This document shows positions 27,564 to 47,285 of a stretch of DNA of 47,378 bases, in pieces. A program made the translations under genes and the position numbers. The stretch is from NCBI GenBank assembly GCA_964525635.1, contig CAZGJX010000018.1, positions 1-47,378 of the forward strand, in the 5' to 3' direction. The DNA is from an uncultured archaeon. Lineage in GTDB: Archaea > Asgardarchaeota > Lokiarchaeia > Sigyniarchaeales > SOKP01. Under the pieces are notes generated by a model. That model was given only the letters and a program-made list of their open reading frames with translations, searched no databases and was not told the DNA's origin. Each line of letters starts with the position of its first letter. The stretch's first letter is position 1.

Positions 27564-28952
27564 TTATATGATCTCTGTTACTAATTGAGAAAATTCAGAA
27601 ATCATATTTTTTGCTTTCTTTATATCATCTGATTCAGCAGAAAGCAGAATTGCGTCTCTAGATAATGCTGATTTTATTACAATATAAACATCATTATTAA
27701 TGATTTTTAATTCATTAATAATATCATAAAACTTAAAGTTCCGTTGGATTAAAGTATCCCTTAATTTACTTTGAAAATTTTCTATTTTCTCAGAAGGAAT
27801 TGGAATTGTTTTATGTAATTTTATTCCTTTTGGAAAACCTTTTATTAATGAGCTAATTAAATCATCTTGATTAGTCATTATCTCAAGAATTTTTAATAAA
27901 ATTAAAATTCCATCGCTAAATGGAGCAAATTCAGGAAAGTAAAATTCTAGCGTATCTGAGGCGGCAAAACAAGCTCTTTCCTCCCTAATTTGTCTAGGAA
28001 TTGTACCTGGATAATTTTTAACTTCTTTAACTGGAAAACCATTTTCTTCAATAAATTTTTTGACTACTGATGAAATCTCAGGGTTAATTATAATTGTATT
28101 TCCTTTAGACTTTTGAATTCTCTCATTATATGATATAAATAGCATTAAAAGATCTTCAAAACTTAATTCTGAACCATTTTCATCTATAATTAAAATTCTT
28201 GAAGCATCTACATCAAAACATATTCCTAAATGACTTTCAGAAGCTTTGATAATTTCTATAGTATTTCTAATTGTTCTAATATTAGGAATTGAACCAATTC
28301 TTTGTCGATAATGAGTATTTAATGCAATTATTTCAACGCCTATTTCATTAAGTAATATTGGTACTATTTTTCCCACAGGACTATATGAACAATCAATAAC
28401 AACTTTCCAATTTTTATCCCCAATTTTTTTTCTATCTACGAATTGTTGTAATGATTTTATATAAATATCCTCTGTTTGAGGAATTCCTGTTAATTTTCCT
28501 ATATCATTTGAATTTACTCTATGAATACCTTTAGGATAATTAATATAAGAATTTATCATTTTTTGGTTCTCTAGTTGTGTAATTTCTATACCTTGTGCAT
28601 CTAAGAAACGTATACAAACATAATCTGAATATAAATGACCTCCCGAGAAATAAACACCCCCGCTTGCTCCAAATCTTCTTATTGTAAATTGCAACAATGG
28701 TAATGTACAATCTGATAAATTAAGTGTATTTATCCCAGAACTCATTAATCCAGCTGAAAAGGATCTCTTAAGCATTCTACAATCGTAATGATAATCTCGT
28801 CCAATGATAACTGATTCATTAGGATCAAATTGTTTTCCATAAATCACTGCTAATTTACTAGTAATTTCTGGAACTAACTCAATATTACCTTTTCCAATAA
28901 TTCTTCCATCTTTTACGAATGGAAATATTTCTTTATTTTCTTTACTCATCAT
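27564..28952 (-). CDS. alpha-phosphohexomutase-like protein (probably catalytically degenerate)
   Basis: IIGRD, KVVIDC and SDGI fold motifs are present, but the phosphoserine loop reads FSGGHL and the metal loop FDVDASR. Confidence 0.75.
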   Translation of the reverse strand: MMSKENKEIFPFVKDGRIIGKGNIELVPEITSKLAVIYGKQFDPNESVIIGRDYHYDCRMLKRSFSAGLMSSGINTLNLSDCTLPLLQFTIRRFGASGGVYFSGGHLYSDYVCIRFLDAQGIEITQLENQKMINSYINYPKGIHRVNSNDIGKLTGIPQTEDIYIKSLQQFVDRKKIGDKNWKVVIDCSYSPVGKIVPILLNEIGVEIIALNTHYRQRIGSIPNIRTIRNTIEIIKASESHLGICFDVDASRILIIDENGSELSFEDLLMLFISYNERIQKSKGNTIIINPEISSVVKKFIEENGFPVKEVKNYPGTIPRQIREERACFAASDTLEFYFPEFAPFSDGILILLKILEIMTNQDDLISSLIKGFPKGIKLHKTIPIPSEKIENFQSKLRDTLIQRNFKFYDIINELKIINNDVYIVIKSALSRDAILLSAESDDIKKAKNMISEFSQLVTEII

Positions 28953-32398: not shown

Positions 32399-33652
32399 CT
32401 AAATTGTAATATATTTTTCTAAAGAAACTCTAATTTCTTTAGCGGCTATATGAGGCAATTTTCTTGCTACTCGCATATCTTCTGCCATTTCTGCGCCTCC
32501 AATTATTTCATGTGGGATTATATCACCAAACATATGGAAATCAGCATCATAATGATATGGGCATCCATTAAATAATATATTTCGATTTTTCTCAACTTTT
32601 ATATCATCTAATGCTTGGAAGATTTTTTTTAAATTTAATGCAAAATCTGAAATTTGATCTATATTTAATTTAGTAAACCTTCTTATATGTTCATTTGGAT
32701 GGAATCTAATATGATAATTTCTTATTGGACTTCCAGAAGTATAAAATGTCCAATAATTTGTTTTTAATATTATCCGATCTGTATCTCCATGAGTAGTTTC
32801 ACATAAATGACAATTATCTTTCATTTCTTTAAATGCTTTTAAAAATCCTTCTAGACGACTTCCATGGCCATCCATATTTAAATCAATATATACTTGACCA
32901 TGTAATCTAGGTTGAGATCCTCCTACTCTCATACCAATATTAAAAAAAGGGCTTACAGGAATATCATAATAATCTCTTGCAATAGCCGCTTGTACAGAAA
33001 AGATGATAGCTTCCTTCATTGATAATAATATATCTCTTATTACATCTTCAGGAATAAGGTCGAAATACATTGAAGGATAAAAGTCTCTTGATAAAGTTAT
33101 CAAATTAATTCCTCTAGCGAGTTTTAAATGGGATGGTAAATTTTTTTTTATATATTTTTCTATTTCAGGATCAATTATTCTTGCCATTGATGGATATCTA
33201 TTAATCAGCGTTAAAGCTTTACAATCTGGTGAAATTTTTTCAATTCTATGTGGAATTTCATGAAAAGGATTATCACGTCTTTTAATTCCTTCACATAAAA
33301 TTATTGTGTATCCATCACCCAATTGATTACCGTTCTTATCATATGCAAGTTCACCCTCTATAACCGATGTAAATACATCTTTTATATTTAATAGTTCTAT
33401 TTTTGAGATTTCCTTCAATTTCAGGTTATATGCGTGAGGTCTGCTCCCACGAATAGGACTCAGATAGGCATAGTGTCCGTAATATCTGATATATTCATCT
33501 CTAAATCCAAATTCTTTTGATTTTATTATTACAGAGGATAATGGGTCCCATCGCTTAATTGGGATATCATATATATCTTTAAAATTCTTTTGATTTATTA
33601 TACCCCACTCCATAAAGGCAGGGAAAGAATCTTTATTAGGTTTTGGTTCCAT
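32399..33652 (-). CDS. GalT/HIT-superfamily nucleotidyltransferase
   Basis: RGSRPH, INRYP, NIGMRVGGSQPRLHGQ, CHLC and FHM. Confidence 0.7.
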   Translation of the reverse strand: MEPKPNKDSFPAFMEWGIINQKNFKDIYDIPIKRWDPLSSVIIKSKEFGFRDEYIRYYGHYAYLSPIRGSRPHAYNLKLKEISKIELLNIKDVFTSVIEGELAYDKNGNQLGDGYTIILCEGIKRRDNPFHEIPHRIEKISPDCKALTLINRYPSMARIIDPEIEKYIKKNLPSHLKLARGINLITLSRDFYPSMYFDLIPEDVIRDILLSMKEAIIFSVQAAIARDYYDIPVSPFFNIGMRVGGSQPRLHGQVYIDLNMDGHGSRLEGFLKAFKEMKDNCHLCETTHGDTDRIILKTNYWTFYTSGSPIRNYHIRFHPNEHIRRFTKLNIDQISDFALNLKKIFQALDDIKVEKNRNILFNGCPYHYDADFHMFGDIIPHEIIGGAEMAEDMRVARKLPHIAAKEIRVSLEKYITI

Positions 33653-33724
33653 AATTTATCTTTACATGTTATTTATTTTAGATTTGAACAAGAAAATAAA
33701 TAGATAGCTCTTATTTATAAATTT

Positions 33725-34603
33725 TTAATTAAGTTCTATTAGCTTTACCTCTATTGAGAGCACTCCTTCGATTTTATAAATTTCTTCTATTATTATGTTC
33801 AATTTTTCCATATCTGGATCAATATAAACTTCATAGATACATCGATCAATTTCTTGACAAATTCCTGATGTAAACACTAAAGTAAATGCATCTTGATGTT
33901 GTGAAAATATATTTGATATCTTTTGAACAACTTTAACAGTCATTTGTTCTCCGAAAATTATTGCTAGTCTGATTATTTTATTAGTATTTACAGGAATCAT
34001 ATCTATTTTTATTGAATCTCCTCGGGTTCTAAACACCATAAAACAATTATCTTTATATTTAGAATTTTTATTAATTTTATTTATGAGTGAATCAGATAAT
34101 ATGATTTCTTTATCTTTCTTTAAATTTTTAAAAGATATTAATGATCCTTCTGTTTCAATTTTTTTTATTGAGACTATTTTATATAATTTATGAATTTCGT
34201 CTTTGAATATTCTATAATACTTTTGTATTTCTTTTTTATTAATCTCAGATTCATCATCAATATAAAAGGCTTTATATATCTCTTGAATATTTTTTATTTT
34301 TTCTATTGATTTTGATAATAAATCTTCATAATAAGAATAATCAGGTTCTTCTTCTGGAATTATAATTGTGATCATTGCCAGCTCTGAACGCCCTCTAGCC
34401 CATTCTGAATCTATTTTAAAGATCCAATTAGCTGTTTTTAATTCTGAAGTAAAATAATGAGAAAAGAATCCTTCATTAACACTATCCAAAAGTGATTTTA
34501 TTTGATTTATATCATTTTTATACAAATTTTCTATTAAGTCATCTGGAGAAGTTAAAAGTACTTGTGGTCCTACAGTTCTATTAAAATAAGTTAGCAATAT
34601 CAT
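33725..34603 (-). CDS. uDENN/longin-like N-terminal domain plus ACT-like C-terminal domain
   Basis: N-terminal LTYFNRTVGPQVLL and ARGRSE; C-terminal ferredoxin-like pattern ending IYKIEGVLSIEV. Confidence 0.5.
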   Translation of the reverse strand: MILLTYFNRTVGPQVLLTSPDDLIENLYKNDINQIKSLLDSVNEGFFSHYFTSELKTANWIFKIDSEWARGRSELAMITIIIPEEEPDYSYYEDLLSKSIEKIKNIQEIYKAFYIDDESEINKKEIQKYYRIFKDEIHKLYKIVSIKKIETEGSLISFKNLKKDKEIILSDSLINKINKNSKYKDNCFMVFRTRGDSIKIDMIPVNTNKIIRLAIIFGEQMTVKVVQKISNIFSQHQDAFTLVFTSGICQEIDRCIYEVYIDPDMEKLNIIIEEIYKIEGVLSIEVKLIELN

Positions 34604-34969
34604 TACTATAAATTGTAATCTATTTTATTGTCTGAAGATTTTTTATTATAACTTAGAATTATTATTAAGATGTTTATAAATATTTCTAAATTTGTGTTAA
34701 TTCTTTTTGATACTATTTTATAATGAATCATTATCGTTATAGAAATATATGTTATAAATTATTAATTGAAAAATGTTCATATTAAATATAGATCAATCAA
34801 CTAATATTTAGTAACATGACTTTTTTTTTTAAAAAATGTAAAAATATACAATAAGATATACTTAAATTAAATTTATGAATACTTTCTTTTCTATTCAAAA
34901 AAAAAAAAGAATGGAGAGAAATGTTTAATTTTACAACCCTTTTTTTCCAATATATCCTTATATTTTATT

Positions 34970-35260
34970 TCAGTATTCAAGTCTCTTTATAATTTTATAA
35001 GTTTTAAACTCTCTTACGGGTTCATCTTTATCTGTATTATCTACAGGAATTTTGATATAATTATTATCATCAAATTCTTCTATATCAGACTTATTTTTAT
35101 ATTTATGAATATTCTTAGCCATTTCCAATTCTTTTAATAAAAATTCTCTTACTGCACATCTTATCAATTCAGATCTAGAGGGATAAAGGCCGTTCTCTCC
35201 TACTAACTTCTCAATTGCATCTATATATGACTCAGGTACATTAACAGTGACAATTTTCAA
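34970..35260 (-). CDS. ribbon-helix-helix (CopG/MetJ) transcriptional regulator
   Basis: MKIVTVNVPESYIDAIEKLV...YPSRSELIRCAVREFL. Confidence 0.88.
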   Translation of the reverse strand: MKIVTVNVPESYIDAIEKLVGENGLYPSRSELIRCAVREFLLKELEMAKNIHKYKNKSDIEEFDDNNYIKIPVDNTDKDEPVREFKTYKIIKRLEY

Positions 35261-35791
35261 AATAAACCGCCTTTAATCACAAATTTTCTTATAATAATAT
35301 TAATTGTAATATCATATATAAAGATTTATTTTTAGTAGATTAATATGTCGAACCTTTTAAAGGTAGGGTGTATAACCAATCTTAATATTTAAGTATTACC
35401 TATTAAAGTATTAATCCATAAAAAAACTTGTTTTTCCTCGTATTTTAATTATTTTTAAAATGAAAAAAATCAACTTTACTTTAATTGATTATAAAAAAAA
35501 AGCTATCTACTTTAAAATGATCTTTAAATTCCTTTTCATTAAATAAAAAGATTCTTTAAAAAATGTTCAATTCTTAATTATTAAATCTAATATTTATTCA
35601 AAATAAATGTTATTATTTCAAATATTAAAAAATAGTTATAAATCAGAAATTAAGAAAATTTCCGATCAATAAATTATAATAAATCAAAAACTTATCTACT
35701 TCTTGAAATTCAAATAAATTTTTATATCTCTCTCATTGATATTATAATAAGAAATTATTGGATTATAAAATTTTAAATTTAGTTTTTAATC

Positions 35792-37180
35792 ATGTCTATT
35801 CAAGAAAAATTTAAGGAAATCATTATAAATCATAAATTTGATGTTTTGAATCATATTTTTTTAACTCCGAAAGATGATTTATCACAATTTACAAAAGAGC
35901 AGGTAAATAATGCCCTATCAATTCTGGAAGGAAATATTTCAGGAGAAGTTCAATATTTTGGTGGTTCTATTGAAAAGAGTAAAGATCAATTTGAAGCTTT
36001 CATAGATACAATAAAGAAAGATATTGAAGCAGAATCTAATGATAATCAAAAAGAATTAAATGATATATTAAAAAAATATGTGAAGATTTTAAAAGAATAC
36101 ACAAGTAAATGTTGTTATGCAATAATTCCTGTTAAAGATATGCCTTGGACAGAAGTTTTATTCAGAACAGTTCCAAAGATAGTTTTTAAAGAAAAAACAA
36201 TTGAGTTAATTGATAGAATTATATCTTATTATGGTGAAATAAAATGTCTGATTTCAAAAACTATAATTCATGGAAGAATAAAAGGAGAACATTCTCTTTT
36301 CGCTCCAGTTATAGGGGATCTAGATTTAAATTATGAATTGGATGACGCGAATCAGAAAGCTAAGAAATCTTTTAATTATTCATATGTTAGTGCTATTATT
36401 AACTCATTAGAATCCACATCAATGAGAAATCATTTAACTCGTTACCATGAGGGATATCAAAGACGGGGTGATCCAATTTGCGATTTTCTCATGAAGAAAG
36501 ATGATTTAATCAACGTGTTTGATAAATTAATGTCTTGTATGGAGTCTGGTAGAATAAATAATAAAGTATCTATAATTGGAATTGCATTACCTCAATCCTC
36601 TGATAAAACAACTTTAGTTATAGTATTAGATGAGAGTGAGAATTCAGGAAAATATGAAAAATGTTTTGAAGCATTATTACGATTATCTGCTGCTTGCTGT
36701 GAAGCCCCTAAGCCACAAATCCAGCCTCAGCAAGCGGCCCCTTTAAGAACACCAGGGGGTCAAGAATTGAAAGTATGGACTGCAGAAGAATTAGCAGATC
36801 AAGCTAGTCAAAGAGGTTCCACTTCGCTACCTCCTGGAATGGATGTATGGACAGAGGAAGAATTGCAGAAAATGTCTGTAGAGAGACAATCAAGCTTACC
36901 TGAAGGAATGGAAACATGGACAGCAGAAGAATTACAAGAATTAGCAAAAAAGAGACAAGGTAATTTAGATATTCCCACATGGGAACCAGATAAAGATATG
37001 AGTGAATGTTCAAAATGTGGTTATGGTTTAAGAAAGGGATGGGATGAATGTCCGATTTGTGGAGCTATAGTTGGGGCTGAAAATGATGAAAGCCAAGAGG
37101 ATGAAAACCAAGAAGATGAAGACCAAGAAGACGATATAGAAAGTAATGAAGAATCAGTTGATTTAGAAAATGAAGATTAA
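35792..37180 (+). CDS. modular protein: globular N-domain, WTxEEL repeats, C4 zinc ribbon and acidic tail
   Basis: Three WTxEEL repeats, CSKC-x10-CPIC and an E/D-rich C-terminus. Confidence 0.75.
   Translation: MSIQEKFKEIIINHKFDVLNHIFLTPKDDLSQFTKEQVNNALSILEGNISGEVQYFGGSIEKSKDQFEAFIDTIKKDIEAESNDNQKELNDILKKYVKILKEYTSKCCYAIIPVKDMPWTEVLFRTVPKIVFKEKTIELIDRIISYYGEIKCLISKTIIHGRIKGEHSLFAPVIGDLDLNYELDDANQKAKKSFNYSYVSAIINSLESTSMRNHLTRYHEGYQRRGDPICDFLMKKDDLINVFDKLMSCMESGRINNKVSIIGIALPQSSDKTTLVIVLDESENSGKYEKCFEALLRLSAACCEAPKPQIQPQQAAPLRTPGGQELKVWTAEELADQASQRGSTSLPPGMDVWTEEELQKMSVERQSSLPEGMETWTAEELQELAKKRQGNLDIPTWEPDKDMSECSKCGYGLRKGWDECPICGAIVGAENDESQEDENQEDEDQEDDIESNEESVDLENED
37094..37138 (+). repeat. 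three 15-bp coding tandem repeats (QEDEN/QEDED/QEDDI)
   Basis: caagaggatgaaaac, caagaagatgaagac, caagaagacgatata. Confidence 0.7.
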
Positions 37181-37411
37181 TCAATTTCACATTTCAACTC
37201 CATTTTTACGACTTTAAAAATAGAAATTCTATAAAATTTTTTTTAATTTTAATCAAATAGATAGATTAAATAATTGAAAAAAATTAATTATTTTTAATTA
37301 ATTGTAAGATTGATTATATTTACTGTGATTTTTAAAATTCTTTCTATTCAAAAGTTTTTTTAAATATTTTTTATTATTAAATTTAAATAAATCAATTTTC
37401 TTGAATTCTAA

Positions 37412-38458
37412 TTGTTAAGTAATATATTTTTATTAAAGGGTAAAAACGTATCAGATTTGGATTTACTCAATATTTACAGTTATCCTTCTGATATAACTTG
37501 GAATGAAGATAAGCAATTCATTCAAAAGATTCTTTATGCTCATAATAATAATGGAAAAGATCAAATTTATCAAACTATATCTGAATTTAAAGCATTTCAA
37601 GAAAATAGTTTACAGAAGGAGCAAAAATACACAATAGAAGATCCTATTCCTCAGGTGATTAATGGACTTAATACCTATACTTTTTATATAAATAATAAAA
37701 TGAGTATAGGATTCATTTTTGACAAAGAAGATAATCCTTATGATTACAGAGATATATGTATGGAATTATTGCATGAAAATTTAATTATGGATTCTAACTT
37801 TTCTCTTGAAGAAGAACTTGAGATTGAGAATTTTTTGATTTCTCTATTTATAGGTATAAGAAGATATGGCGATGAAGTAATTGAAAGAAAACCTATTATT
37901 GAATATAGCTCTAATACCAATCTATTTATCAAGGTCTTTCTATTTGGAATAGATGAGGCTGGTAAAACTTCACTAATTCGTAGAATAAAAACAGGAAATT
38001 ATAATGATAATTATTTCATGCCTACAAGAAAATTTAATATAGAATATATTCAAGAAAATGAGGGACTTTTAGCTTTTTGGGATATGCCAGGACAACGAAC
38101 TTTTAGGAAAAAATGGTTATTAGGTTTACAGGATTCTAATCTTATTATTTATATGATAGATGTAGCTAATCAATTAAGATTTGAAGAAGCTAAAAAAGAA
38201 TTTTGGCGTATTATAAATAGATATGAATTAGCTGGTATTCCTTTACTCATATTAGGCAATAAGATTGATTTAATAAATCAAAATATTGATATTAAACAAA
38301 ATAAAGCACTAAAAAAAGAAATCTTTAGTTTTTTTGAATTTGGTAAAATAAATGATAGGAACTGGAAATTCCTTTTTACTTCAGTTAAAAGTAATTATCA
38401 AATTAATAGGGTATCCAAAAAAATATTTAAGTTAAAATCCTCAATAAATATAAATTAG
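37412..38458 (+). CDS. Arf-like small GTPase with N-terminal longin-like domain
   Basis: G1 GIDEAGKTS, G2 PT, G3 WDMPGQ, G4 NKID and G5 TSVK, with a ~170-aa N-terminal extension. Confidence 0.85.
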   Translation: MLSNIFLLKGKNVSDLDLLNIYSYPSDITWNEDKQFIQKILYAHNNNGKDQIYQTISEFKAFQENSLQKEQKYTIEDPIPQVINGLNTYTFYINNKMSIGFIFDKEDNPYDYRDICMELLHENLIMDSNFSLEEELEIENFLISLFIGIRRYGDEVIERKPIIEYSSNTNLFIKVFLFGIDEAGKTSLIRRIKTGNYNDNYFMPTRKFNIEYIQENEGLLAFWDMPGQRTFRKKWLLGLQDSNLIIYMIDVANQLRFEEAKKEFWRIINRYELAGIPLLILGNKIDLINQNIDIKQNKALKKEIFSFFEFGKINDRNWKFLFTSVKSNYQINRVSKKIFKLKSSININ

Positions 38459-38617
38459 AAATTATATAATTTTTTCATAAAAAAAACTAATTAAACATTT
38501 TAACTATGCTAAAATTACTTTAATCATTAAATTTAAATATTTAGATAATTAAATCTAATTCAAATAAGATAATTTAAGCATAATTTTCAATTAAACAATC
38601 TAAAAAGGGTTGACAAT

Positions 38618-39223
38618 ATGCATAAAAGATTTAAAAACGATCTGATAATTAATATTGATGAGAAAAAAGGACACTTATATCTTGGTGGAGCAGATAAACA
38701 AATCCGTTTATTTATGATAAGACCAATTGATATTATTGAGTTCTCTGAATTTGCAGGACAGAATGCAGCAGATATTCTCATATGGATTGGAAAAACATTA
38801 GGAAAAGAGATAATGCAGAAGTTTTTTTATGATTATTTCTTTTTGGAAACAATCCCAGTGAAGAAAGATATATTCAAAAGCGTACTTGAGGGATTAACTT
38901 TTATGGGATTTGGATATTTAGATGCTACTTTTAAAAAGGATCATATCTTAGTGAGTAATTATAATTCCATGGCAGATGCGGAAAGGGAAAACTATATGGC
39001 AAAGAATCTTTGTATTATAAATCAAGGACTTTTTCATGGAGTACTTGATGTCTTAGGTTTTGAAGCTGAGGGAGAAGAAATAGAATGCGTTTTATTAGGA
39101 AATAAGCGTTGTAAATTCCAGTTTAAATTACTTGAAGATAAAATACCAGACGACGCAATCGATGAGGAAAAGTCAGATCAAGAAGTAAAGACTATTATGG
39201 AATCTTTAGTTAAATCTTATTAA
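38618..39223 (+). CDS. V4R (Bet3/TRAPP-related fold) domain protein
   Basis: IGKTLG, MGFG, LCIINQGLFHG and EIECVLLGNKRCKF V4R signature. Confidence 0.8.
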   Translation: MHKRFKNDLIINIDEKKGHLYLGGADKQIRLFMIRPIDIIEFSEFAGQNAADILIWIGKTLGKEIMQKFFYDYFFLETIPVKKDIFKSVLEGLTFMGFGYLDATFKKDHILVSNYNSMADAERENYMAKNLCIINQGLFHGVLDVLGFEAEGEEIECVLLGNKRCKFQFKLLEDKIPDDAIDEEKSDQEVKTIMESLVKSY

Positions 39224-39448
39224 TTATAGTAATATTTACTAATTCTTTTTGTTCCATAAATTTACAGTTAATTAATATTTCTCTAAACTATATATGACGC
39301 AGTTAATAATCACTCATTCTAATCATTTTTATCTCATTAATACAACCAATTAAATAAGTGAGAAATTGTTGTTATGATTAAATATTTAATGCGTTATAAA
39401 TAATTATTAAACAATTAAATTAGAAAAAAAAAACCTAAAAAATGAGAA

Positions 39449-41797
39449 TTAAGTATGACAAAGTCTTTTTAGTAGGGTTGGATCAACTATTTCTTTTGGT
39501 TTCCAATCTTTTTCCTTGAGATATTTCACGATTTTATCCTTTAAATTTATTGGAATATCAGCTTCAACACGAATAAATTTGTCTAAGTCTTCTGGAATAT
39601 TTACACCTTTATATTTATATTCTAAATCAAGCCAATGGGATAATTTAATCATTCGACCTTTTGAATTATCAGCGGGTCTAAGAGCTAATTTTGCAACTAG
39701 ACAAATAGCTTCCTCAATTGTTTCTGCTGTTGTTAATAAATGTTCAGGACCAGGACCTACCAAATGTTCGGCTGTACCGTCTCGTGCATTATAGACCTTC
39801 CAAGTATCTTCCTTATCAGAACGCCCAAGATACATTCTACGATATTCCGCACCATGTGGTCCTATTACTGCTGGAATCCCAAGGCTATTAGCACTACTTG
39901 CAATACTTGCCGCTTTTTGACTCATTGCACCCCAAGCAACACCAACTGCTCCAACTCTGTTTAAAATGTAATCTGCTATTTCCTCAAAATTTCCCCTTAA
40001 TGGACGCCGAGCAAATATATTTGCTACTTTACAGGCCGCTCCAGTAATATGTGGATTACTAACACAAGATCCTACATTAACCAAACCTCCTCTGTCAAAA
40101 TCCCCTGGAAAACGATCATATAATGTTTCACCATCATCATTTTTAACAAGTCCTATATCCATAGCTGCACATCCTGAAACAACAACTATGTAATTTCTTT
40201 TACAGAATTCTTCTGCCATTTGATAAAGTTCTTGTATTTCATGAGCATAATTTGCACATCCAATTATAGCTACAATTCCTGGGATTTCTCCTAAAACTAT
40301 TGGAGCTCCAACATTACGGATTTCTGTATCTCGGATTGGCCCTCTTCCAACTCTTATATTAAATTTTTCATTTTTAATTTTTTCTCTTGCAGCATACATT
40401 ATAAGTGTAAGAGGAGAGACATTCTTCATGCAATCTGCTTCACACCGACCACAATCTAAACACTCATCATATATATTTGATAATAATGAAAAGTCACCAA
40501 CTTTGGCTGCTTTAATACTATCTACAAGGGGTAAATCATTAGGACAATTTCTCTGGCAATTAGTACATCCATTGCATCTTAAAGCCATTTCTATACAACC
40601 CTTTTCATCGGGAATAGCACTCTTTCCTTTTCTTAATGGTTTCACTCTAATTGCAGTCTCTACTGCTACTTTCGCTGCCTTAATAGGATCTAATATTAAA
40701 ACACCTTTAACTTTACCACTAACTAGGTCATCTACGATTTTATCTGCGAGATCATTTGTTCTATCGGGTAAACCATTCATATTTTTATCATTTGTAGCTA
40801 TAAATGGAGCATCAATCAATTTTGCTTGTTCAAAAGAACGTAAGTTAACACATTGTTCGTCAACCATTACAACATCAGCCAATCCCGAACGAATGAATGA
40901 TAATTGCCTTGAAAGTGAACCCACTATTTTTGCACCATCATAATATCTTGTTAAATCAAGAGCTGTACAACATATTGCCCCCACATCTATTTTTTCTTCT
41001 AATCCTGCTTCTCTTAAATAATCAACTAATTCAATACCGGGTGCTACATTATGACCAATCATTAAAATAGTAGCTTTATTTTCAAAATCCATTGTTCCTG
41101 TTCCTAATTCAACAATTGGAACATTCGGCTCTCCCACGGGGAATCCATATGCTGCTATTTGAACAGCATCCGAAATTTCCATTCCCACAGAATCACATAG
41201 ACCTGCTAAAAAACTTTTTGCTTCGTAATCTAAATAACTAGCTTCCTGACCTGTATGTCCCGCAGCGAGTAGGTGTGTTATATTATGTTGTACCCATTGC
41301 ATTGCTTCTTCTAAATCTTCAAGATTTTCTGGTTTCATTCCAACTATTAATCTTGTACATGGCATTTCAACCTCTATATTATTACCAAAATTTATTGGAA
41401 CATTCCCATATTTTTTTTTTAACCAGTGGAGTAAGTGATCTCCATGAGCTGAATGACAACTCGCCCCAATACAGCAAGCTATCTCTACTATTCTTGCTTG
41501 TTGAGTTTCCATGTTAATTCCACATGCTCCAGTTCTACCTTTTGAAAGATTACATTTTCCAAATGTACAAAGACAACACATATCACAAATTGGCATGTAA
41601 AAAGGCTTATAACGTTCCATTAATGTGAAAAACCAGTTTCTTAAGGTAGGAATTATCGGACGAGGTGTGGGTCCCATAGGTTCAAATTCTATCTCATCTG
41701 CATAACTTATTTTTCCAGTAGTGAATTCAAATCCTTTAATTGTTCCTAAAGGTCCCTTATAATCATCTATTTTTAATCTGGCACCTTTTTTACTCAT
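39449..41797 (-). CDS. cdhA: CO dehydrogenase/acetyl-CoA synthase complex alpha subunit
   Basis: CDMCCLCTFGKC, GHNV, ICCT, DEQC, two CxxCxxCxxxC ferredoxin motifs, GSCVSNPH and WGAMSQKA. Confidence 0.95.
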   Translation of the reverse strand: MSKKGARLKIDDYKGPLGTIKGFEFTTGKISYADEIEFEPMGPTPRPIIPTLRNWFFTLMERYKPFYMPICDMCCLCTFGKCNLSKGRTGACGINMETQQARIVEIACCIGASCHSAHGDHLLHWLKKKYGNVPINFGNNIEVEMPCTRLIVGMKPENLEDLEEAMQWVQHNITHLLAAGHTGQEASYLDYEAKSFLAGLCDSVGMEISDAVQIAAYGFPVGEPNVPIVELGTGTMDFENKATILMIGHNVAPGIELVDYLREAGLEEKIDVGAICCTALDLTRYYDGAKIVGSLSRQLSFIRSGLADVVMVDEQCVNLRSFEQAKLIDAPFIATNDKNMNGLPDRTNDLADKIVDDLVSGKVKGVLILDPIKAAKVAVETAIRVKPLRKGKSAIPDEKGCIEMALRCNGCTNCQRNCPNDLPLVDSIKAAKVGDFSLLSNIYDECLDCGRCEADCMKNVSPLTLIMYAAREKIKNEKFNIRVGRGPIRDTEIRNVGAPIVLGEIPGIVAIIGCANYAHEIQELYQMAEEFCKRNYIVVVSGCAAMDIGLVKNDDGETLYDRFPGDFDRGGLVNVGSCVSNPHITGAACKVANIFARRPLRGNFEEIADYILNRVGAVGVAWGAMSQKAASIASSANSLGIPAVIGPHGAEYRRMYLGRSDKEDTWKVYNARDGTAEHLVGPGPEHLLTTAETIEEAICLVAKLALRPADNSKGRMIKLSHWLDLEYKYKGVNIPEDLDKFIRVEADIPINLKDKIVKYLKEKDWKPKEIVDPTLLKRLCHT

Positions 41798-41971
41798 TTT
41801 TTCTTTTCTCTTTTTATTATTGTTAAGAATTTTGAATAAATGATAATAATTAATGTTATTTTTAATTTTATTTTAAAATTTATATTTAACATATATTTAA
41901 TGGTTTTTTTAGTTTAAAGCTTAATTCTTATATTTCAAAATTAATATAGTACCTTATATTACAGATTATAT

Positions 41972-41987
41972 GTGTGAAATTTCACAC
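41972..41987. promoter_or_regulatory. perfect 16-bp palindrome, candidate operator
   Basis: GTGTGAAATTTCACAC in the divergent intergenic region between cdhA and the small His-rich gene. Confidence 0.5.
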
Positions 41988-42060
41988 TATCATATCAAGT
42001 CATTGATTTTATCAATCTTTATTAATTATTAGATTTTAAACTATTATTGGAATAATAAAA

Positions 42061-42267
42061 ATGAACAAAAATGTCGAAAAATTAGCGAAATTATTAATTC
42101 ATTGGGTAAACCATAATGATTCTCATAAGGAATCATATGAGAAATGGAAAAATATTGCAAAAGAAGAAGGACTTCTATCTGTAGCGGAATGTATAGATAA
42201 AGCTATTGAATTACTTGATAAAAGTACAGAATTTTTACTTAAAGCTAATACAAAAATTAAATTTTAA
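42061..42267 (+). CDS. small His-rich helical protein (possible Ni/metal-binding CODH accessory)
   Basis: EKLAKLLIHWVNHNDSHKESYEKW motif; divergent from cdhA. Confidence 0.65.
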   Translation: MNKNVEKLAKLLIHWVNHNDSHKESYEKWKNIAKEEGLLSVAECIDKAIELLDKSTEFLLKANTKIKF

Positions 42268-42396
42268 GAAATATAATAATTCTCAAATTTTACCAAGTAC
42301 TTATCAACAAATCTGTTATCTATTAACTTCTTTATAGTAACAAAGACACAAGAATATTAATAAATAATAACAGAATTTAGAAATAAAGAAAAATAA

Positions 42397-43602
42397 TTAT
42401 AAGAATAAATTAATTAATGGTAAGAGTTGTTTTTTAAAATATTCAATATATTTATCAATTAGAGCAGGATTATCTGTGAGTACCCATAAATAAACTGGAA
42501 TTTGTAAATCAGAATATTCAAATAATTTTTCTCCTTGGATTGTAAATCCATTTAAAGGGAATTCAAGCTTTATTGATTTTTCTCTAATTAATCCTATTGA
42601 ATTATGAAAATTACTAAGAGTTTGTAATAATAATGCTGTATTGTTAATTAACATCTCATCTGTATTTGTTTGATGATAAGTTCCAAAAATTAAACCATCC
42701 ATAGAAATTAAACTTGTGGCTTTACTATTAATAATTCGTGCAAATTCCTCTAGAATGTTCTCGATTATTTCATATGTATCAGAAACTTTCTTTAAGGCGA
42801 CACTAAACATCTGCATAATAGTTTCTTTCTGAAAAATCGTAGTATCATAATAATCAATGTTAAAATCTTTAAAGTTATCTAAGACGGGATTGAAAGAATC
42901 TTTAATTGCTCTTACATTCTGTTGCCATTCGAGAGTCTTCCTGAAATCTTGATCACTTTTATGAAGTACAATAAGAATAGGTGATTTTTCATCGAGGTTG
43001 GTTAATGATTCTAATACTTGTTGGAAATATTCAGCAGATTCTTTAAATCTTTCAGCATCTTGGACATCAATTACATATAAAATCAAATCAACTTCCGTGA
43101 AAAAGATTTCAGGTTTATTAAAATAATATTTTTCTCTATATTGAACCTGTCCACCTAAATCCCAAGATACAATAGGATAACCAAAAAATTCTAACTTTTC
43201 TCTTTTAACACCTTTAGTTGGTAATAATGATTTAATTATTGAGAATTTATCTTGGAGTACAGCCAGAATGGATGATTTTCCTCCATTATCTAGTCCAATT
43301 AATAATAATTTTTTCTGTTCCTTTAGTTGCTCTTTTATAGTTTTCTCTAATAATTTTGCAATTCTAATCCATTTTATTATAATATTAGGTTCAATTTCCT
43401 TAATTTGAGGGGGATTATCTTCATTTAAATTTGCCATATCTAAAATTGATTCAATATTATACTTTGATAACACTTCTGAAGAGATTTGATCAATTCCTAT
43501 CAACGTATCTGGTTTAAAACGTAATATCTCCTCCAAATCGTTGAAAATAACAGTTCTTTTAAAGAAATCCTTAATTTTTAATAAATTATCTTCCCAAGAC
43601 AT
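42397..43602 (-). CDS. Rag/Arf-like GTPase with N-terminal HhH-like and C-terminal roadblock-like domains
   Basis: G1 GLDNGGKSS, G3 WDLGGQ, G4 HKSD and G5 TTIF; C-terminal LISMDGLIFG; N-terminal LIGIDQISSEVLSKYNIESILDM. Confidence 0.8.
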   Translation of the reverse strand: MSWEDNLLKIKDFFKRTVIFNDLEEILRFKPDTLIGIDQISSEVLSKYNIESILDMANLNEDNPPQIKEIEPNIIIKWIRIAKLLEKTIKEQLKEQKKLLLIGLDNGGKSSILAVLQDKFSIIKSLLPTKGVKREKLEFFGYPIVSWDLGGQVQYREKYYFNKPEIFFTEVDLILYVIDVQDAERFKESAEYFQQVLESLTNLDEKSPILIVLHKSDQDFRKTLEWQQNVRAIKDSFNPVLDNFKDFNIDYYDTTIFQKETIMQMFSVALKKVSDTYEIIENILEEFARIINSKATSLISMDGLIFGTYHQTNTDEMLINNTALLLQTLSNFHNSIGLIREKSIKLEFPLNGFTIQGEKLFEYSDLQIPVYLWVLTDNPALIDKYIEYFKKQLLPLINLFL

Positions 43603-43905
43603 CTCTTATCATTAATAATAATTCAATATTATATAAATAATCTTTAGTATCACAGATAAAAAAAGTTTTATTTATAAATATGGTTTATAAATAAAATTGA
43701 TAAAAAGTAAATACATTTCACTAATGCCATTTTACTATACAATAATCTTAGATTCATATTTTGTATCAATGACAAAAACATTGATAAAAAGGTTCAGAAT
43801 TAATATTTTTATTTTCACATAAAATATATAACTAAATAAATAAGAAATATATTTATTTATTAAGATTTAAAATCTAGTTAATAATAAAAATTTTGGTTCA
43901 GAAAC

Positions 43906-45105
43906 GTGTCTAATCGATATCCGGAAAATATAGTAATTTGCATTGATACGTCACGTTCAATGTTTAGGAGAGATTATTCTCCATCACGGATAGTTTGTAG
44001 TATAAAAGCTATAAAAAAAATAGTTACTGAGAGACTCAATCTTGATCCATCGACTTCATTTGCTATTATAAAATTTTCAAATAGTGCTAAAAAATTGATA
44101 GATTTTACTAATATACAAGATGATATATTTCAAGCTCTTACTTCTTTATCTGTTCAAGGGACTTCTGCAATAGGTGAAGCATTAGCTCTTTCAATAAAAA
44201 TCATAATAGAGGAATTAAGGAAAATAGTTGAAAAGATACCTCGAATTCTTTTAATTTCTGATGGGAATTTTACAAAAACAGTTGTTGATCCTTTAAAGAT
44301 GGCTAGATTGGCTCAAGGATTGAACATTAAAATAGATGCATTTAGACTCAGTAATGGTGGTAAAATAAATATATTAAAAAGACTAAGTGATGTTTCTGGA
44401 GGTAAATATTATTATAATAATGATGAAATTACTCTATATGATTCTGCTTCTAATTTTTCCAATTCGAATATAAAAACTTCTAATTCTGATTTATCAAATA
44501 AAATTGAGAATCCTGCTTTTCTTAGAAAAATTGCTGCTAATTTATTAAGAGTTCAAGATTTAACGAAAGATCAAGAACAAAGAATTAAACAAATAAGAGG
44601 TATGACTGATTTTAAAAAATGTTCAATCTGCTTTTTAGATAAAGATCCTGTTACAAAGGGATCTTTTTATTTGACAGGCAGATATTGCCCAAATTGTCAA
44701 ACTCCCTTTCATATTCATTGTTTAGCTGGTTGGGCAGATTCTCAAGGGGATCCTAAATTAAAAAGATCAGGTACTTGCAGATGTCCACATTGCTTTTATT
44801 TATTAAAGATCCCTACGGAAATATCTCAAGCACAGAGATTAAAAATTCTAACAGATATGCAATCAGGACCAAGTACCTCTCAAAAATCAATAGATGTTAA
44901 TACTGCATTTAAAATGAAAGCATCATTTTTAGGTGATGAAGCTTTATATAATTCCTGTCCTGTCTGTAATATGATTTTTGAAGAACATCAAGAAATTATC
45001 AAATGTGGGAATTATAAATGTGGTGTATTATACCATCACGATTGCTTTTTAAAATTAGAAAATAATATTTGTAAAAATTGTGGATCTAAATTAGAAATTA
45101 AATAA
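43906..45105 (+). CDS. vWA (Ssl1/Rpn10-like) domain protein with two RING-like zinc fingers
   Basis: MIDAS IDTSRSM, GTSAIG and LISDG; two C4HC3 clusters. Confidence 0.8.
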   Translation: MSNRYPENIVICIDTSRSMFRRDYSPSRIVCSIKAIKKIVTERLNLDPSTSFAIIKFSNSAKKLIDFTNIQDDIFQALTSLSVQGTSAIGEALALSIKIIIEELRKIVEKIPRILLISDGNFTKTVVDPLKMARLAQGLNIKIDAFRLSNGGKINILKRLSDVSGGKYYYNNDEITLYDSASNFSNSNIKTSNSDLSNKIENPAFLRKIAANLLRVQDLTKDQEQRIKQIRGMTDFKKCSICFLDKDPVTKGSFYLTGRYCPNCQTPFHIHCLAGWADSQGDPKLKRSGTCRCPHCFYLLKIPTEISQAQRLKILTDMQSGPSTSQKSIDVNTAFKMKASFLGDEALYNSCPVCNMIFEEHQEIIKCGNYKCGVLYHHDCFLKLENNICKNCGSKLEIK

Positions 45106-45155
45106 TAGAAATTATAAGAATTGAATAAAATTCTTTATTTGATATAATTAATAAT

Positions 45156-46034
45156 ATGTCTGAATCTGCTTATATATATGGTAATTTAAAACTTGGGAGA
45201 GGTCATTTCGATCTACCTCCTGTTTTAATAGGGACATTATTTTATAAAGGAGAGACTATAATAGATAGAAATAATCCTGAATTATTTAGTGAAAAAAAAG
45301 CAAAAAACCGTATAAATAATCATAAAAAACTTGCTACTCAATATCATCTACCTGAAATGATTGAAATTACTGCTGATGGACCTAAGTCTATGAAAAAATA
45401 TCTTGAATTTTATTTGGATAATTATAATACACCATTTGTATTAGGTGGTAATTTTAATGCTCGTGTAGAGGGAATTGAATACTTAAATGAGAGAGGTATA
45501 AAACCAACAGAATATATCTATAATACTATTTCAAATTTAAATAACAGTAAGGAGATTGAAATTATAAAAAAAAATAAGATTAACTCTGTTGTAGTATTAA
45601 TTCTTGGTTCTGAAAACATGACATCAACTCAAAGATATAATTATCTAATAAAAAAAAGAACACCTAATAATTTAACTCTCATTGATGCAATAAAGAATCT
45701 TGGTGTAGAGAAGATTTGGATTGATGGGGGAGTAATAAATTTAGAAAGTTTGGCAAGTATTCTTGAAACTCAGCAAATTGTAAGTAAATCACTTTATTTA
45801 CCTGTGGGAACAGCACCAAATTTATTTTTATTTAGATTTTCATCACCTAAACTGAATAAAAAATATCATACTCGATATAGAAGAGCAAGTATAATGTTTA
45901 TCTCTACATGGGTTTCAAATTTTATCTTTTATGGAGCAATTGAAGATGCAACAGAGTCATTTGCATCAGTTTATCAAGCATTTAAATTTAAAAAAATTGT
46001 GAAAAATAAAAATATTAAAATTTTAGATTATTAG
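45156..46034 (+). CDS. MtrH-like pterin-binding methyltransferase homolog (divergent)
   Basis: PPVLIGTLFYKG, IYNTIS, IWID, LPVG and FYGAIE resemble MtrH blocks. Confidence 0.65.
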   Translation: MSESAYIYGNLKLGRGHFDLPPVLIGTLFYKGETIIDRNNPELFSEKKAKNRINNHKKLATQYHLPEMIEITADGPKSMKKYLEFYLDNYNTPFVLGGNFNARVEGIEYLNERGIKPTEYIYNTISNLNNSKEIEIIKKNKINSVVVLILGSENMTSTQRYNYLIKKRTPNNLTLIDAIKNLGVEKIWIDGGVINLESLASILETQQIVSKSLYLPVGTAPNLFLFRFSSPKLNKKYHTRYRRASIMFISTWVSNFIFYGAIEDATESFASVYQAFKFKKIVKNKNIKILDY

Positions 46035-46157
46035 TGTCTCAACTAAATAATTTTAAATAACAATTTCGTCTTAAAGTATACAAGAACAATTTTATATCTT
46101 ATTTAAGATAAAAAAAAAATTGTTATGAAGGAAAAATAATTAAGGTTTGAGAGAAAT

Positions 46158-47285
46158 ATGATAAATAATCAAGAGCGAGATGAAAAAAAAATTGAAGCTT
46201 TAAGACTAATTGATCTTGCAGAAGATTTAGTTAATCGAGGAAAAGGTAAAGAAGCTATAGATTTATATGAGAAAGCAGCTCAACTTTACTTAGATCTTGG
46301 TAGTTATCTTAAAATTGATGAAATATATATTCGAATTGCTTCAATTATCTTAAAATTTAAAAATCATATTCAAGCTGTTTATCGGTTAAAATCAATTATT
46401 CGAAAAACTGAAACTCTAAATTTGGAAGAAATTTCAGCAAAATTATTAATTCAACTAGGAAATATATCATTCAGAATGAAAGATTATGAAACTGCTGGTG
46501 AATCGTATGAAAAGGCTGGTGATTATTTTTATAATCTCGATCCTGAAGAATATTATAATCTCTCTTCAGAACTATTATTAAAGGCGGCTTTAGCTATAGA
46601 AAAAGCCCACTCTGATAGAAATAAGGGAGAGAGACTTATATTAAGAGCAGTTATGATAGAAAATAAGATAGAAAAAGTCCTTGGATTAGAAGAGAAAAGA
46701 TCTATGCAATTATTGGAAATGGAGAAATATGAAGCAGCTGCTAATAAATATGTAGAATTATCAAATTACTTTCAAAAAACAATTAATAATATTAATGAAT
46801 TAATAATAAATTCAGAAGAAATTGAAATTATAAAAAATACTAAAAGTAGATTAATTCATATAACTGCTGAATATGTGATTATAGCATTAATCTGTTTAAA
46901 GGCTTCAAAAAACAAAGAAAATAATCAAAAAATAGTATCTTTAGGAAATACTGCAATAGGACTATTAAAAGATGCCATTATCCTCCTAAAAGAATGTTTT
47001 CATTCCAAAATGATTGAAAATGATAAAGAAGATTATTTGAGAATAACATTTGATACTTTTCTCATTTCTTTAATTCAAAGTATTACAGAAACAAAGAAAA
47101 TCCATCCTCTTAATTTTCTATTAGAAAATTTGGATGATAAATCTATTGTAAAAAGAATAAAAAAAACACCTTATTATCATTTAATTGAAAGAATAGAAAA
47201 AGTAGGATTATTAGAATCTTTAACAAATATTAATGATACTCATTTGGGACGTTTAGATAAAATTAAGAAAATTCTTAATCTATAA
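46158..47285 (+). CDS. TPR/SNAP-like alpha-solenoid protein
   Basis: EAIDLYEKAAQLY, AGESYEKAGDYF and YEAAANKY repeats. Confidence 0.6.
   Translation: MINNQERDEKKIEALRLIDLAEDLVNRGKGKEAIDLYEKAAQLYLDLGSYLKIDEIYIRIASIILKFKNHIQAVYRLKSIIRKTETLNLEEISAKLLIQLGNISFRMKDYETAGESYEKAGDYFYNLDPEEYYNLSSELLLKAALAIEKAHSDRNKGERLILRAVMIENKIEKVLGLEEKRSMQLLEMEKYEAAANKYVELSNYFQKTINNINELIINSEEIEIIKNTKSRLIHITAEYVIIALICLKASKNKENNQKIVSLGNTAIGLLKDAIILLKECFHSKMIENDKEDYLRITFDTFLISLIQSITETKKIHPLNFLLENLDDKSIVKRIKKTPYYHLIERIEKVGLLESLTNINDTHLGRLDKIKKILNL

Follow-up and report, generated by a model that had tools for sequence, protein, structure and literature searches.

The window analyzed here, a stretch of 47,378 nucleotides from an uncultured Lokiarchaeial genome, contains a gene for a small GTPase that carries an additional domain at its N-terminus, and it raises the question of which family of switches this protein belongs to and what its head may hold on to. 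The Rag/Gtr GTPases are central to nutrient sensing in eukaryotes and their Asgard relatives help to reconstruct the origin of such switches; at stake is what the Asgard Rag-like switches connect to. A preliminary description, made from the letters of the window, had read the gene as an Arf/Rag-intermediate GTPase with a roadblock tail and a helix-hairpin-helix (HhH) head by which it might be tethered to nucleic acid.

Gene and domain layout

The open reading frame was judged real, as it has an ATG start and its orthologues start at the same position. A total of 559 homologues of the 401-aa protein were found, and the best 120 of these 559 (hereafter the closest relatives) are 398–405 aa long with 66–82% identity. 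The AF2 model of the protein has pLDDT 88 and pTM 0.81, and a three-domain layout holds, consisting of an N-domain of (HhH)2 fold, an intact G domain and a roadblock C-domain (Table 1). Profiles and model superposition support this layout as it was first described, and the gene encodes a Lokiarchaeial (Promethearchaeota) protein that is related to the Rag/Gtr nutrient-switch GTPases of eukaryotes and bears an extra degenerate and acidic HhH head. Two alignments were used, a full-family profile of 39 members (A1) and an N-domain alignment of 17 members (A2). A tree was built from the nearest 133 metagenomic representatives.

Table 1. Positions of the GTPase gene, its domains and motifs, and other features of the window
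Feature	Position in window	Strand	Basis or remark
HhH-Rag-like GTPase gene	42397..43602	-	ORF list; 401 aa + stop codon
N-terminal domain, residues 1-94	43321..43602	-	(HhH)2-type core ~ residues 24-90 (43333-43533)
G domain, residues 96-275	42778..43317	-	Pfam Gtr1_RagA E 9.7e-26, Arf E 5.8e-21
C-terminal roadblock-type domain, residues 276-401	42400..42777	-	DSSP on AF2 model and VIA superposition
Degenerate hairpin 1 LIGIDQ, residues 34-39	43486..43503	-	canonical HhH has G-h-G here
Degenerate hairpin 2 IKEIEPN, residues 67-73	43384..43404	-	without Gly; followed by invariant K77-W78
G1 GLDNGGKSS, residues 103-111	43270-43296	-	motif read in translation
Switch I LPTKGV, residues 127-132	43207-43224	-	motif read in translation
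G3 WDLGGQ, residues 147-152	43147-43164	-	motif read in translation
G4 HKSD, residues 214-217	42952-42963	-	motif read in translation
G5 TTIFQKETIMQMFS, residues 254-267	42802-42843	-	motif read in translation
vWA + RING protein, 399 aa	43906..45105	+	Pfam VWA_2, VWA, Ssl1; weak RING matches; candidate partner
AT-rich divergent intergenic region common to Rag-like and vWA-RING genes	43603..43905	.	sequence read
Convergent 68-aa gene just downstream	42061..42267	+	conserved
RadA	25539-26534		HHH_5 at residues 24-77

The G domain and the roadblock domain

All nucleotide-binding and switch residues of the G domain are intact. Residues G103, G108, K109, T129, D148, G151, D179, K215 and D217 are invariant in A1, and T129 and Q152 are kept in all 120 closest relatives. 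The motifs noticed at first reading (the HKSD of G4, an Arf-like G1, the G5 region and a roadblock-like C-domain) were found again, at the positions given in Table 1. In the A1 profile alignment to human RagA, the G3 of the protein, its HKSD and its TTIF fall on the WDCGGQ, HKMD and TSIWD...AWS of RagA, and the T-T/S-I/V-F/Y pattern of G5 is conserved among the relatives. The His of G4, named in the preliminary description as characteristic of eukaryotic Rag/Gtr GTPases, is not conserved in the orthologue group, where the closest relatives have Ser (94), His (13) or Asn (13) as the first residue of G4.

The Pfam model Gtr1_RagA (PF04670) is matched by the protein with 91 bits over residues 98–316 (cut-off 22), against 75 bits for Arf and 30 for Ras, and by 39 of the 39 members of A1. 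The A1 profile scores 113 bits with RagA against 99.6 bits with Arl3. When it was compared with PDB, the E-values were 1.7e-69 for 8yl2, 1.2e-59 for 8zla, 1.7e-31 for RagA (profile positions 96–373) and 2e-27 for Arl3, and phmmer of the protein against PDB gave 8yl2 with E 2.6e-36. A Foldseek comparison of the model matched Rag/Gtr-type structures, namely 8yl2 with E 6e-22 and Rag/Gtr chains with E 1e-17 to 1e-15 across about 300–313 columns. Whole-chain superposition by VIA gave Z 30.9 for 8yl2, 27.0 for RagC and 26.9 for RagA, with 284–289 residues aligned. The G domain by itself lies about equally close to Rag and to Arf/Arl (RagD G domain Z 22.7 vs Arl2 Z 22.2), which together with the 91 vs 75 bits agrees with its description as an Arf/Rag intermediate.

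In the AF2 model, residues 277–400 form an alpha-beta-beta-alpha-beta-beta-beta-alpha fold (DSSP: H277-290, E293-300, E305-310, H313-335, E343-348, E353-362, E369-376, H380-400). The G domain and the C-domain superpose jointly on Rag/Gtr chains across model residues 94–399, with VIA ranges that reach residues 394–399 on RagA, RagC, Gtr1, Gtr2 and LokiRagO, and the A1 alignment with RagA likewise extends through profile position 373. The predicted structure thus shows a roadblock domain directly after the G domain, as in RagA/C, Gtr1/2 and the crystallised LokiRagO, and the roadblock fold proposed earlier is upheld by the Z of 25–27 with which the whole predicted chain superposes on RagA, RagC, Gtr1 and Gtr2. 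A Pfam search of the C-domain alone gave no family above threshold, NCAB1 being sub-threshold. Arf/Arl structures superpose on the G domain only and not on the C-domain.

This bears on the reading of the protein as an Arf-like membrane GTPase, whose N-terminal element would enter the membrane in the GTP state as in Arf and Sar. The Arf model of Pfam does match (Table 1), relatives are named 'ADP-ribosylation factor-like protein' in the database, the GLDNGGKS P-loop, the PTKG of switch I and the WDLGGQ are of Arf type, and the Arl2/Arl3 G domains superpose with Z of about 22. However, the Arf match covers profile positions 10–128 of 174 only and ends before G5, and the G5 is of the Rag type T-T/S-I-F/Y aligned with the TSIWD of RagA. 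The Arf/Arl/Sar family (PF00025) has an N-terminal amphipathic helix, often with a myristoylated Gly2, an NKxD G4 and no extra C-domain; here the first 94 residues fold as an HhH domain in place of an amphipathic helix, with Ser, not Gly, as residue 2, the G4 is H/S/N-K-x-D and a roadblock domain is present, which Arf proteins lack. Zhu et al. 2025 (PMC11914678) also placed an Asgard group earlier called 'Arf-like' close to Rag and not within the Arf clade. We regard the Arf-like membrane reading as very improbable.

The best sequence and structure matches of the Rag/Gtr-type protein are LokiRagO (PDB 8yl2, 'homo-tetrameric RagA-like small GTPase from Asgard Lokiarchaeota') and LokiRagM (8zla/9m28). 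They share with it the G domain and roadblock, the WDLGGQ, an HK-x-D and a TxIY-type G5, and 8yl2 has 284 residues aligned with 30% identity over model residues 96–397. In contrast, 8yl2 (342 aa) aligns from its own residue 33–41 onward and is without an HhH domain, and 8zla has nothing ahead of its G domain but is extended at the C-terminus. A literature search for papers describing 8YL2, 8ZLA/9M28 or 'LokiRag' found none. On RagA-D and Gtr1/Gtr2 (PF04670) the whole G domain plus roadblock superposes with Z 25–27, rmsd 3.1–3.5 A and 281–289 residues, but the identity is just 18–21%. The present protein further differs from these eukaryotic proteins by its Arf-type P-loop and switch I, by the variable first residue of G4 among its orthologues, by its extra (HhH)2 domain and by having no adjacent second Rag gene, and no second roadblock-bearing GTPase gene adjoins the locus. 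An apparent stand-alone roadblock ORF (G000:C52) was rejected, since it is the C-terminal end of a different Rag-like gene that the contig end truncates.

The N-terminal (HhH)2 head

The N-domain was modelled alone (AF2, pLDDT 87) as a five-helix fold with two helix-hairpin-helix units. VIA superposed it on NusA-AR2 with Z 7.3 (rmsd 2.2 A, 64 residues), on Rev1 with 6.9, the Rad51 NTD with 6.7, AF1548 with 6.3, NusA-AR1 with 6.0 and the RNAP alpha-CTD with 5.6. These structural matches of a predicted domain are middling (Z 6–7.7), and the Foldseek search of PDB with the N-domain model gave nothing at E<=1e-3, the best E being 0.045. An ESM Atlas search with residues 1–94 returned no usable match. 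The (HhH)2 relatives with similar scores include DNA binders, for example the Rad51 NTD, the alpha-CTD and the thumbs of Y-family polymerases.

The homology of the head is visible at profile level only. A Pfam search of this protein's N-domain alone gave no family even at E<=10, and BLASTP against the DUF4332/HHH_5 protein at 16101–16895 of the window gave only E 0.045, so that profiles were required. With them, the hhalign probability of A2 was 90% (E 1.6e-6) for this DUF4332 protein and 83.5% (E 8e-6) for the N-terminus of RadA, which is the resemblance within the window that had been noticed from the letters for the N-terminal ~90 aa. A search of the whole genome with the A1 profile matched 16713–16916 (E 1e-7) and 16308–16556 (E 1e-6). 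Among the 17 members of A2, Pfam found HHH_5 in 7 (best E 3.8e-7) and RNA_pol_A_CTD in 7, and the best PDB sequence matches of the A2 profile were NusA AR1/AR2 (E 1.2e-5), with Pol IV, RNAP alpha-CTD and Rad51 also matched. The head is thus homologous to the HHH_5/DUF4332 units, to the RadA/Rad51 N-domain and to the acidic repeats of NusA.

The two hairpins of the head have lost the phosphate-contacting G-h-G loops, which are absent from both hairpins of this orthologue group. Hairpin 1 reads G36-I37-D38, Gly36 being kept by 119 and Asp38 by every one of the 120 closest relatives, at a position where paralogue clusters have GIG or GVG. The counterpart of hairpin 2 in the basic paralogues is h-G-I. 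K77 and W78 are found in 120 of the 120 closest relatives and the DUF4332 protein has a KW at the matching place of the alignment. With pI 4.6 and net charge -5 the HhH core is acidic, as it is in the closest relatives (median pI 4.9; pI <=7 in 119 of 120), and a canonical GIG accompanies a pI of 8–10.6 only in other paralogue clusters. The comparison shows HhH heads of two types, the canonical ones being basic and the degenerate ones acidic. The mean identity of the N-domain to the query is 55% among the closest relatives, and together with the invariant G36 (119/120), D38, K77 and W78 this indicates a domain under selection.

These features decide how far the head may be read as a nucleic-acid tether, in which it would bind DNA or RNA of any sequence and bring the switch to the nucleoid, to an intermediate of recombination or repair or to a ribonucleoprotein. 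The homology to DNA-binding HHH_5 domains, to the RadA/Rad51 NTD, to the thumbs of Pol IV and Rev1 and to the alpha-CTD speaks for it, and so does the fact that many of the subfamily's other clusters, made up of paralogues, keep GIG/GVG and are strongly basic. Against it are the missing G-h-G of both hairpins, the Asp in place of the second Gly of hairpin 1 in every one of the closest relatives, the lack of any Gly in hairpin 2, the acidic core and the best sequence match, which is to NusA AR1/AR2; no DNA-metabolism gene was seen in the conserved neighbourhood either. The acidity and the glycine loss argue against nucleic-acid binding rather than excluding it, and because both hairpins lack the G-h-G, the core is acidic and the best PDB sequence match is NusA AR1/AR2, the tether that the preliminary description had put forward appears unlikely for this protein. 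The GIG/GVG and the basic charge of the paralogue heads mean that the ancestral head may have bound nucleic acid, and ancestral HhH-Rag proteins may have been tethered in this way, the basic GIG heads surviving in other paralogues.

The AR1/AR2 repeats of NusA are protein-binding (HhH)2 modules. The present N-domain is likewise acidic with non-canonical hairpins, and differs from NusA AR1/AR2 and the other (HhH)2 domains in being fused to a small GTPase and in falling, in this copy, under every Pfam threshold.

In VIA the N-domain matches best a mitoribosomal protein of kinetoplastids, mL85 (Z 7.7 over 77 aligned residues), which brings in a translation- or ribosome-associated GTPase whose head would bind rRNA as a module of the S13 or mL85 kind. 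Two members of A2 weakly match Ribosomal_S13, and the MMR_HSR1 match (31.6 bits) and the database name '50S ribosome-binding GTPase' point the same way. However, MMR_HSR1 is a generic G-domain model whose score is far under the 91 bits of Gtr1_RagA, none of the NCBIfam equivalogs for Era, Der, Obg and HflX comes near its cut-off, the head is acidic, and a Z of 7.7 is within the range that VIA calls common for unrelated helical models. A ribosomal role is hardly credible on this evidence. The names '50S ribosome-binding GTPase' and 'Arf-like' were both rejected as family assignments after Pfam, NCBIfam, profile and structure comparison.

Gene neighbourhood, proposed mechanism and distribution

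The orthologue is locked head-to-head with the vWA-RING gene across the shared intergenic region. In loci L001-L006, L040-L046 and L063-L068 the vWA-RING gene lies next to the orthologue and is transcribed away from it, and the head-to-head arrangement was seen in all examined orthologous loci having a flank, which cover 4 genera. In tblastn the 68-aa gene was found at 46–61% identity beside the orthologue in almost every locus, also in that of genome G065, which is without cdhA. Further members of the conserved cluster are another GTPase (37412-38458), a protein of the V4R type (Bet3 superfamily; 38618-39223) and one that is TPR/SNAP-like.

At a probability of about 55%, the protein is a Rag/Gtr-type switch whose HhH head serves as a protein-docking adaptor, with the vWA-RING product as its most likely partner or target. 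The GTPase would cycle between GTP and GDP states and oligomerise via its roadblock domain, as do the heterodimeric Rag proteins and the homotetrameric LokiRagO. The head would dock a protein partner and not act as a nucleic-acid clamp, since the phosphate-contacting glycines are lost in both hairpins, hairpin 1 has an invariant Asp and the domain is acidic. The partner would most likely be the product of the invariably adjacent divergent gene, and the nucleotide state of the GTPase may gate a ubiquitin-ligase-like or scaffold activity. Related genomes share gene order, so that adjacency within one family of them is a weak argument for a physical interaction. The further proposal that the two proteins form a GTP-gated signalling pair of ubiquitin-ligase type, in which the nucleotide state governs the docking of the RING protein by the acidic head, is speculative and quite improbable; if true, it would make the pair an archaeal precursor of the link between Rag GTPases and RING-containing regulators in eukaryotic nutrient signalling.

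Rag-like GTPases of Asgard archaea are already known. Rag-like GTPase-RB, longin-GTPase and longin-GTPase-RB architectures were described in 'Ca. Prometheoarchaeum' MK-D1, and no internal membrane compartments are reported in such organisms (Tran et al. 2024, PMC10933270). The MK-D1 proteins belong to the same Lokiarchaeial Rag-like superfamily, are 'close to Arf in structural homology' and have roadblock fusions; the text and one supplement of that paper name longin and RB fusions only, with no HhH head. A literature search on Asgard, helix-hairpin-helix, Rag and GTPase gave no relevant paper, and we found no description of the HhH fusion in the searchable papers.

The fusion is common among Rag-like proteins of Lokiarchaeia, as an (HhH)2 head is present on 44 of the nearest 151 clusters at 50% identity. 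The Rag-like orthologue itself was found in 8 of the 9 genomes of one Lokiarchaeial family (f1) and in no other family of the sample. The vWA-RING orthologue occurs in 9 of these 9 genomes and in 0 of 71 genomes of 20 other families (E<=1e-20); in the sole f1 genome without a Rag match, the vWA-RING gene lies 452 bases from a contig end. The genome of the window also encodes further Rag-like forms, which are a short form (~305 aa), a long-N form (~480 aa) and a tandem pair located elsewhere.

Rag and Arf traits of the GTPase

The gene called HhH-Rag here encodes a protein with an N-domain (residues 1–94), a G domain (96–275) and a C-domain (276–401), and its start codon is backed by orthologues having an identical start position. 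The window has a G+C content of about 26%, and the MAGs that supplied the related loci are titled Promethearchaeota/Promethearchaeia, i.e. Lokiarchaeia. A word-indexed search (E<=1e-5) gave 559 homologues; the closest 120 of these belong to Lokiarchaeial MAGs, are 398–405 aa long and 66–82% identical, and in most cases bear the name 'ADP-ribosylation factor-like protein'. Every motif quoted for this protein in the preliminary description was found in its sequence.

Features of the HhH-Rag protein and of related or neighbouring genes in the window
Feature	Position	Strand	Remarks
HhH-Rag ORF	42397-43602	minus	401 residues
HhH-Rag G1	residues 103-111		GLDNGGKSS
HhH-Rag switch I	residues 127-132		LPTKGV
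HhH-Rag G3	residues 147-152		WDLGGQ
HhH-Rag G4	residues 214-217		HKSD
HhH-Rag G5	residues 254-267		TTIFQKETIMQMFS
DUF4332/HHH_5 protein	16101-16895
RadA	25539-26534		HHH_5 at residues 24-77
Longin-ACT-like gene	33725-34603
Second small GTPase	37412-38458	plus	348 aa; Arf model E 3e-29; G domain from ~residue 172
V4R protein	38618-39223		after second GTPase
68-aa gene	42061-42267	plus	convergent to HhH-Rag; His-rich start HWVNHNDSH
vWA + RING protein gene	43906-45105		head-to-head with HhH-Rag; 303 AT-rich bases between

The top Pfam match was Gtr1_RagA (E 9.7e-26, 91 bits, residues 98–316), followed by Arf (E 5.8e-21), which spans only positions 10–128 of the 174 in its profile. In NCBIfam the sole match was the generic small_GTP domain, and all translation-factor-type equivalogs scored far under their cut-offs. 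The best PDB sequences were 8yl2 (E 2.6e-36) and 8zla/9m28 (E 4e-30). Both are deposited as 'GTP-binding protein'; in Foldseek the former is titled LokiRagO, 'homo-tetrameric RagA-like small GTPase from Asgard Lokiarchaeota', whereas the latter has the title LokiRagM, 'monomeric Rag-like small GTPase'. Profile A1, built from 39 members of the family, matched 8yl2 at 1.7e-69, 8zla at 1.2e-59 and human RagA at 1.7e-31 over profile positions 96–373, a range that takes in the C-domain as well as the G domain, while Arl3 (2e-27) was matched in the G domain only. In the alignment with RagA, the WDLGGQ, HKxD and TSIY...FS of the family lie over WDCGGQ, HKMD and TSIWD...AWS. The His of G4, taken earlier as a Rag trait, is variable in the orthologue group: in the 120 closest of the 559 homologues G4 begins with Ser (94), His (13) or Asn (13), and K215, D217, T129 and Q152 are invariant.

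The AF2 model made on A1 was confident (pLDDT 88.2, pTM 0.81), and the predicted order of helices and strands after the G domain (H277-290, E293-300, E305-310, H313-335, E343-348, E353-362, E369-376, H380-400) is the roadblock pattern. Foldseek placed 8yl2 on top (E 6e-22) and then RagA, RagC, Gtr1 and Gtr2 (E 1e-17 to 1e-15, 300–313 columns, target-normalised TM 0.74–0.78). By VIA-align, 8yl2 gave Z 30.9 over 284 residues (model 96–397), RagC Z 27.0 (96–399), RagA Z 26.9 (94–398) and Gtr1/2 Z ~26, and Arf/Arl chains gave Z ~21–22 on the G domain only. The proposed roadblock domain is thus supported by the modelled secondary structure and by superposition of Rag/Gtr chains up to model residues 394–399. 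Rag and Arl scored about equally when the comparison was limited to the G domain (RagD Z 22.7, Arl2 Z 22.2); taken with the Rag/Gtr matches, this makes 'Rag-like with Arf-like G-domain traits' an accurate label. Rag-like GTPases of Asgard archaea are already known, and the structures of two have been solved; their Arf-like G-domain traits were already reported by Tran et al. (PMC10933270), and an earlier 'Arf-like' Asgard group was placed near Rag and outside Arf by Zhu et al. 2025 (PMC11914678).

Nature of the HhH head

No Pfam model matched residues 1–94 alone, and BLASTP of the N-domain against the DUF4332/HHH_5 protein of the window was marginal (E 0.045). At profile level, homology to HhH proteins is clear. 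The genome-wide A1 search matched the DUF4332/HHH_5 protein at 16713–16916 (E 1e-7) and 16308–16556 (E 1e-6), and, on a different contig, a RadA-like protein. Seventeen N-domains were aligned (A2), and hhalign matched this alignment to the DUF4332/HHH_5 protein (probability 90%, E 1.6e-6) and to the N-terminus of the window's RadA (83.5%, E 8e-6), which bears out the likeness to both that had been noticed earlier. Seven of the 17 members match HHH_5 (best E 3.8e-7) and seven the RNAP alpha-CTD model; in PDB sequences A2 retrieved NusA AR1+AR2 (E 1.2e-5), Pol IV, alpha-CTD and Rad51/RadA N-domains. The N-domain modelled alone gave a confident fold (pLDDT 87), for which Foldseek had no match at E<=1e-3 and VIA-align found mL85 (Z 7.7), NusA-AR2 (Z 7.3, rmsd 2.2 Å over 64 residues), Rev1, Rad51 NTD (Z 6.7), NusA-AR1, RAD51C NTD and alpha-CTD. 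Since sequence and structure retrieve the same families, we accept a predicted (HhH)2-type fold, though the Z scores are moderate.

It was suggested earlier that this head may tether the GTPase to nucleic acid. The hairpins of HhH-Rag are L-I-G-I-D and I-K-E-I-E-P-N, with the G-h-G motif in neither; among the same 120 homologues Asp38, K77 and W78 are invariant, Gly36 is kept in 119, and the median pI of the HhH core is 4.9, exceeding 7 in one. The acidic repeats of NusA are protein-binding (HhH)2 modules, and they are the closest sequence analogues of the head. Because of the degenerate hairpins, the acidity and the NusA likeness, the head of HhH-Rag is read as a putative protein-docking adaptor, with a probability of about 55–60%. 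The tether is unlikely for HhH-Rag, given the lacking G-h-G, the constant Asp38 and the acidic core, so the earlier reading stands for a Rag-like GTPase with an HhH head and is improbable in its nucleic-acid part. For basic GIG/GVG paralogue heads a tether is plausible: in the 44 HhH-bearing representative clusters (query plus best 150), hairpin type and pI split cleanly, those with GIG, GVG or FIG hairpins being mostly basic (pI 8.3–10.6; one GVG cluster 6.9) and the G-h-D clusters around HhH-Rag acidic to neutral (pI 4.4–6.8). Judged from mean identity to the query in the 120 closest relatives (head 55%, G domain 73%, C-domain 75%), the head is less conserved than the other domains, yet clearly constrained.

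The HhH part of A1 also matches the window's own genome at C107:9123-9320, C123:8433-8612 and C44:13964-14137, in two long ORFs (632 and 748 aa) and in a RadA-like protein of 287 aa; such heads are thus joined to several unrelated proteins there.

Distribution and origin of the fusion

An exhaustive search (E<=1e-3) gave 2601 representative clusters. When the query and the best 150 of these were scanned with an HMM from A2, 44 proved to have the head; in the remainder the P-loop lies either near residue 10 (short forms) or near residue 180 (long-N forms). A quick, midpoint-rooted FastTree tree of 133 metagenomic G+C-domain sequences put the HhH-bearing rows in two neighbouring groups of 39 and 13, the query lying in the latter (support 99), and the 81 HhH-less rows in one clade (support 94). 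By this arrangement the fusion may have arisen once, and a tree of this kind carries no further conclusion. Among 81 genomes sampled from the phylum, 8 of the 9 that belong to the window's own family gave an orthologue at E<=1e-40, against 0 of 71 from 20 other families; two other families hold full-length HhH-G-roadblock proteins that are more distant. No description of an HhH-fused Rag subfamily was found in the literature searched; it is a variant within the known Asgard Rag-like GTPases.

The window's genome has at least two further HhH-bearing paralogues (C111, C19) among 42 profile matches. In another paralogue (C5:12368-13462, minus, locus L012), which matches profile positions 42–396, a single in-frame TGA separates the HhH-like part from the G domain, and the longest ORF (337 aa) begins shortly ahead of the P-loop; a sequencing error, a split gene or a pseudogene could account for this. 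Tandem Rag-like G+roadblock genes of 307 and 308 aa on one strand (C20:26899-27810 and 27968-28864, minus) recall the MK-D1 operon pair modelled as a Gtr1/Gtr2-like heterodimer by Tran et al. 2024 (PMC10933270).

Conserved gene neighbourhood

The arrangement with the vWA-RING gene head-to-head and the 68-aa gene convergent was present in every orthologous locus with a flank (L001-L006, L040-L046, L063-L068; four genera). A vWA-RING orthologue was found in 9 of 9 genomes of the family and, at E<=1e-20, in none outside it in the sample; in the sole family genome without a Rag match this gene lies 452 bases from a contig end. A second vWA-RING paralogue, 30–34% identical to the one in the window, is present at one locus in every family genome (C40:13275-14423, plus, in the window's own, on a contig without an HhH-Rag paralogue).

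The wider cluster (window 32399–47285) keeps the order orf417, orf462, second GTPase, V4R, (cdhA), 68-aa gene, HhH-Rag and vWA-RING in six further family genomes of several genera (L063-L068), and MtrH-like and TPR/SNAP-like genes come after vWA-RING where the flank reaches (L002-L006). As these genomes are kin, the common gene order does no more than hint at a functional link. One genome (G065) lacks cdhA in the cluster. The 68-aa gene is 46–61% identical in nearly all orthologous loci, the cdhA-less one included, and its only Pfam match, DUF7645, is sub-threshold. The N-terminal domain of about 170 aa in the second GTPase (173 residues) had no Pfam match at a threshold as loose as E<=10. The orf462 product is a repeat/Zn-ribbon protein, and tblastn (E<=1e-10) detected the longin-ACT-like gene in one genome only (G030). 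The second GTPase and V4R form a syntenic pair in every family genome that was examined.
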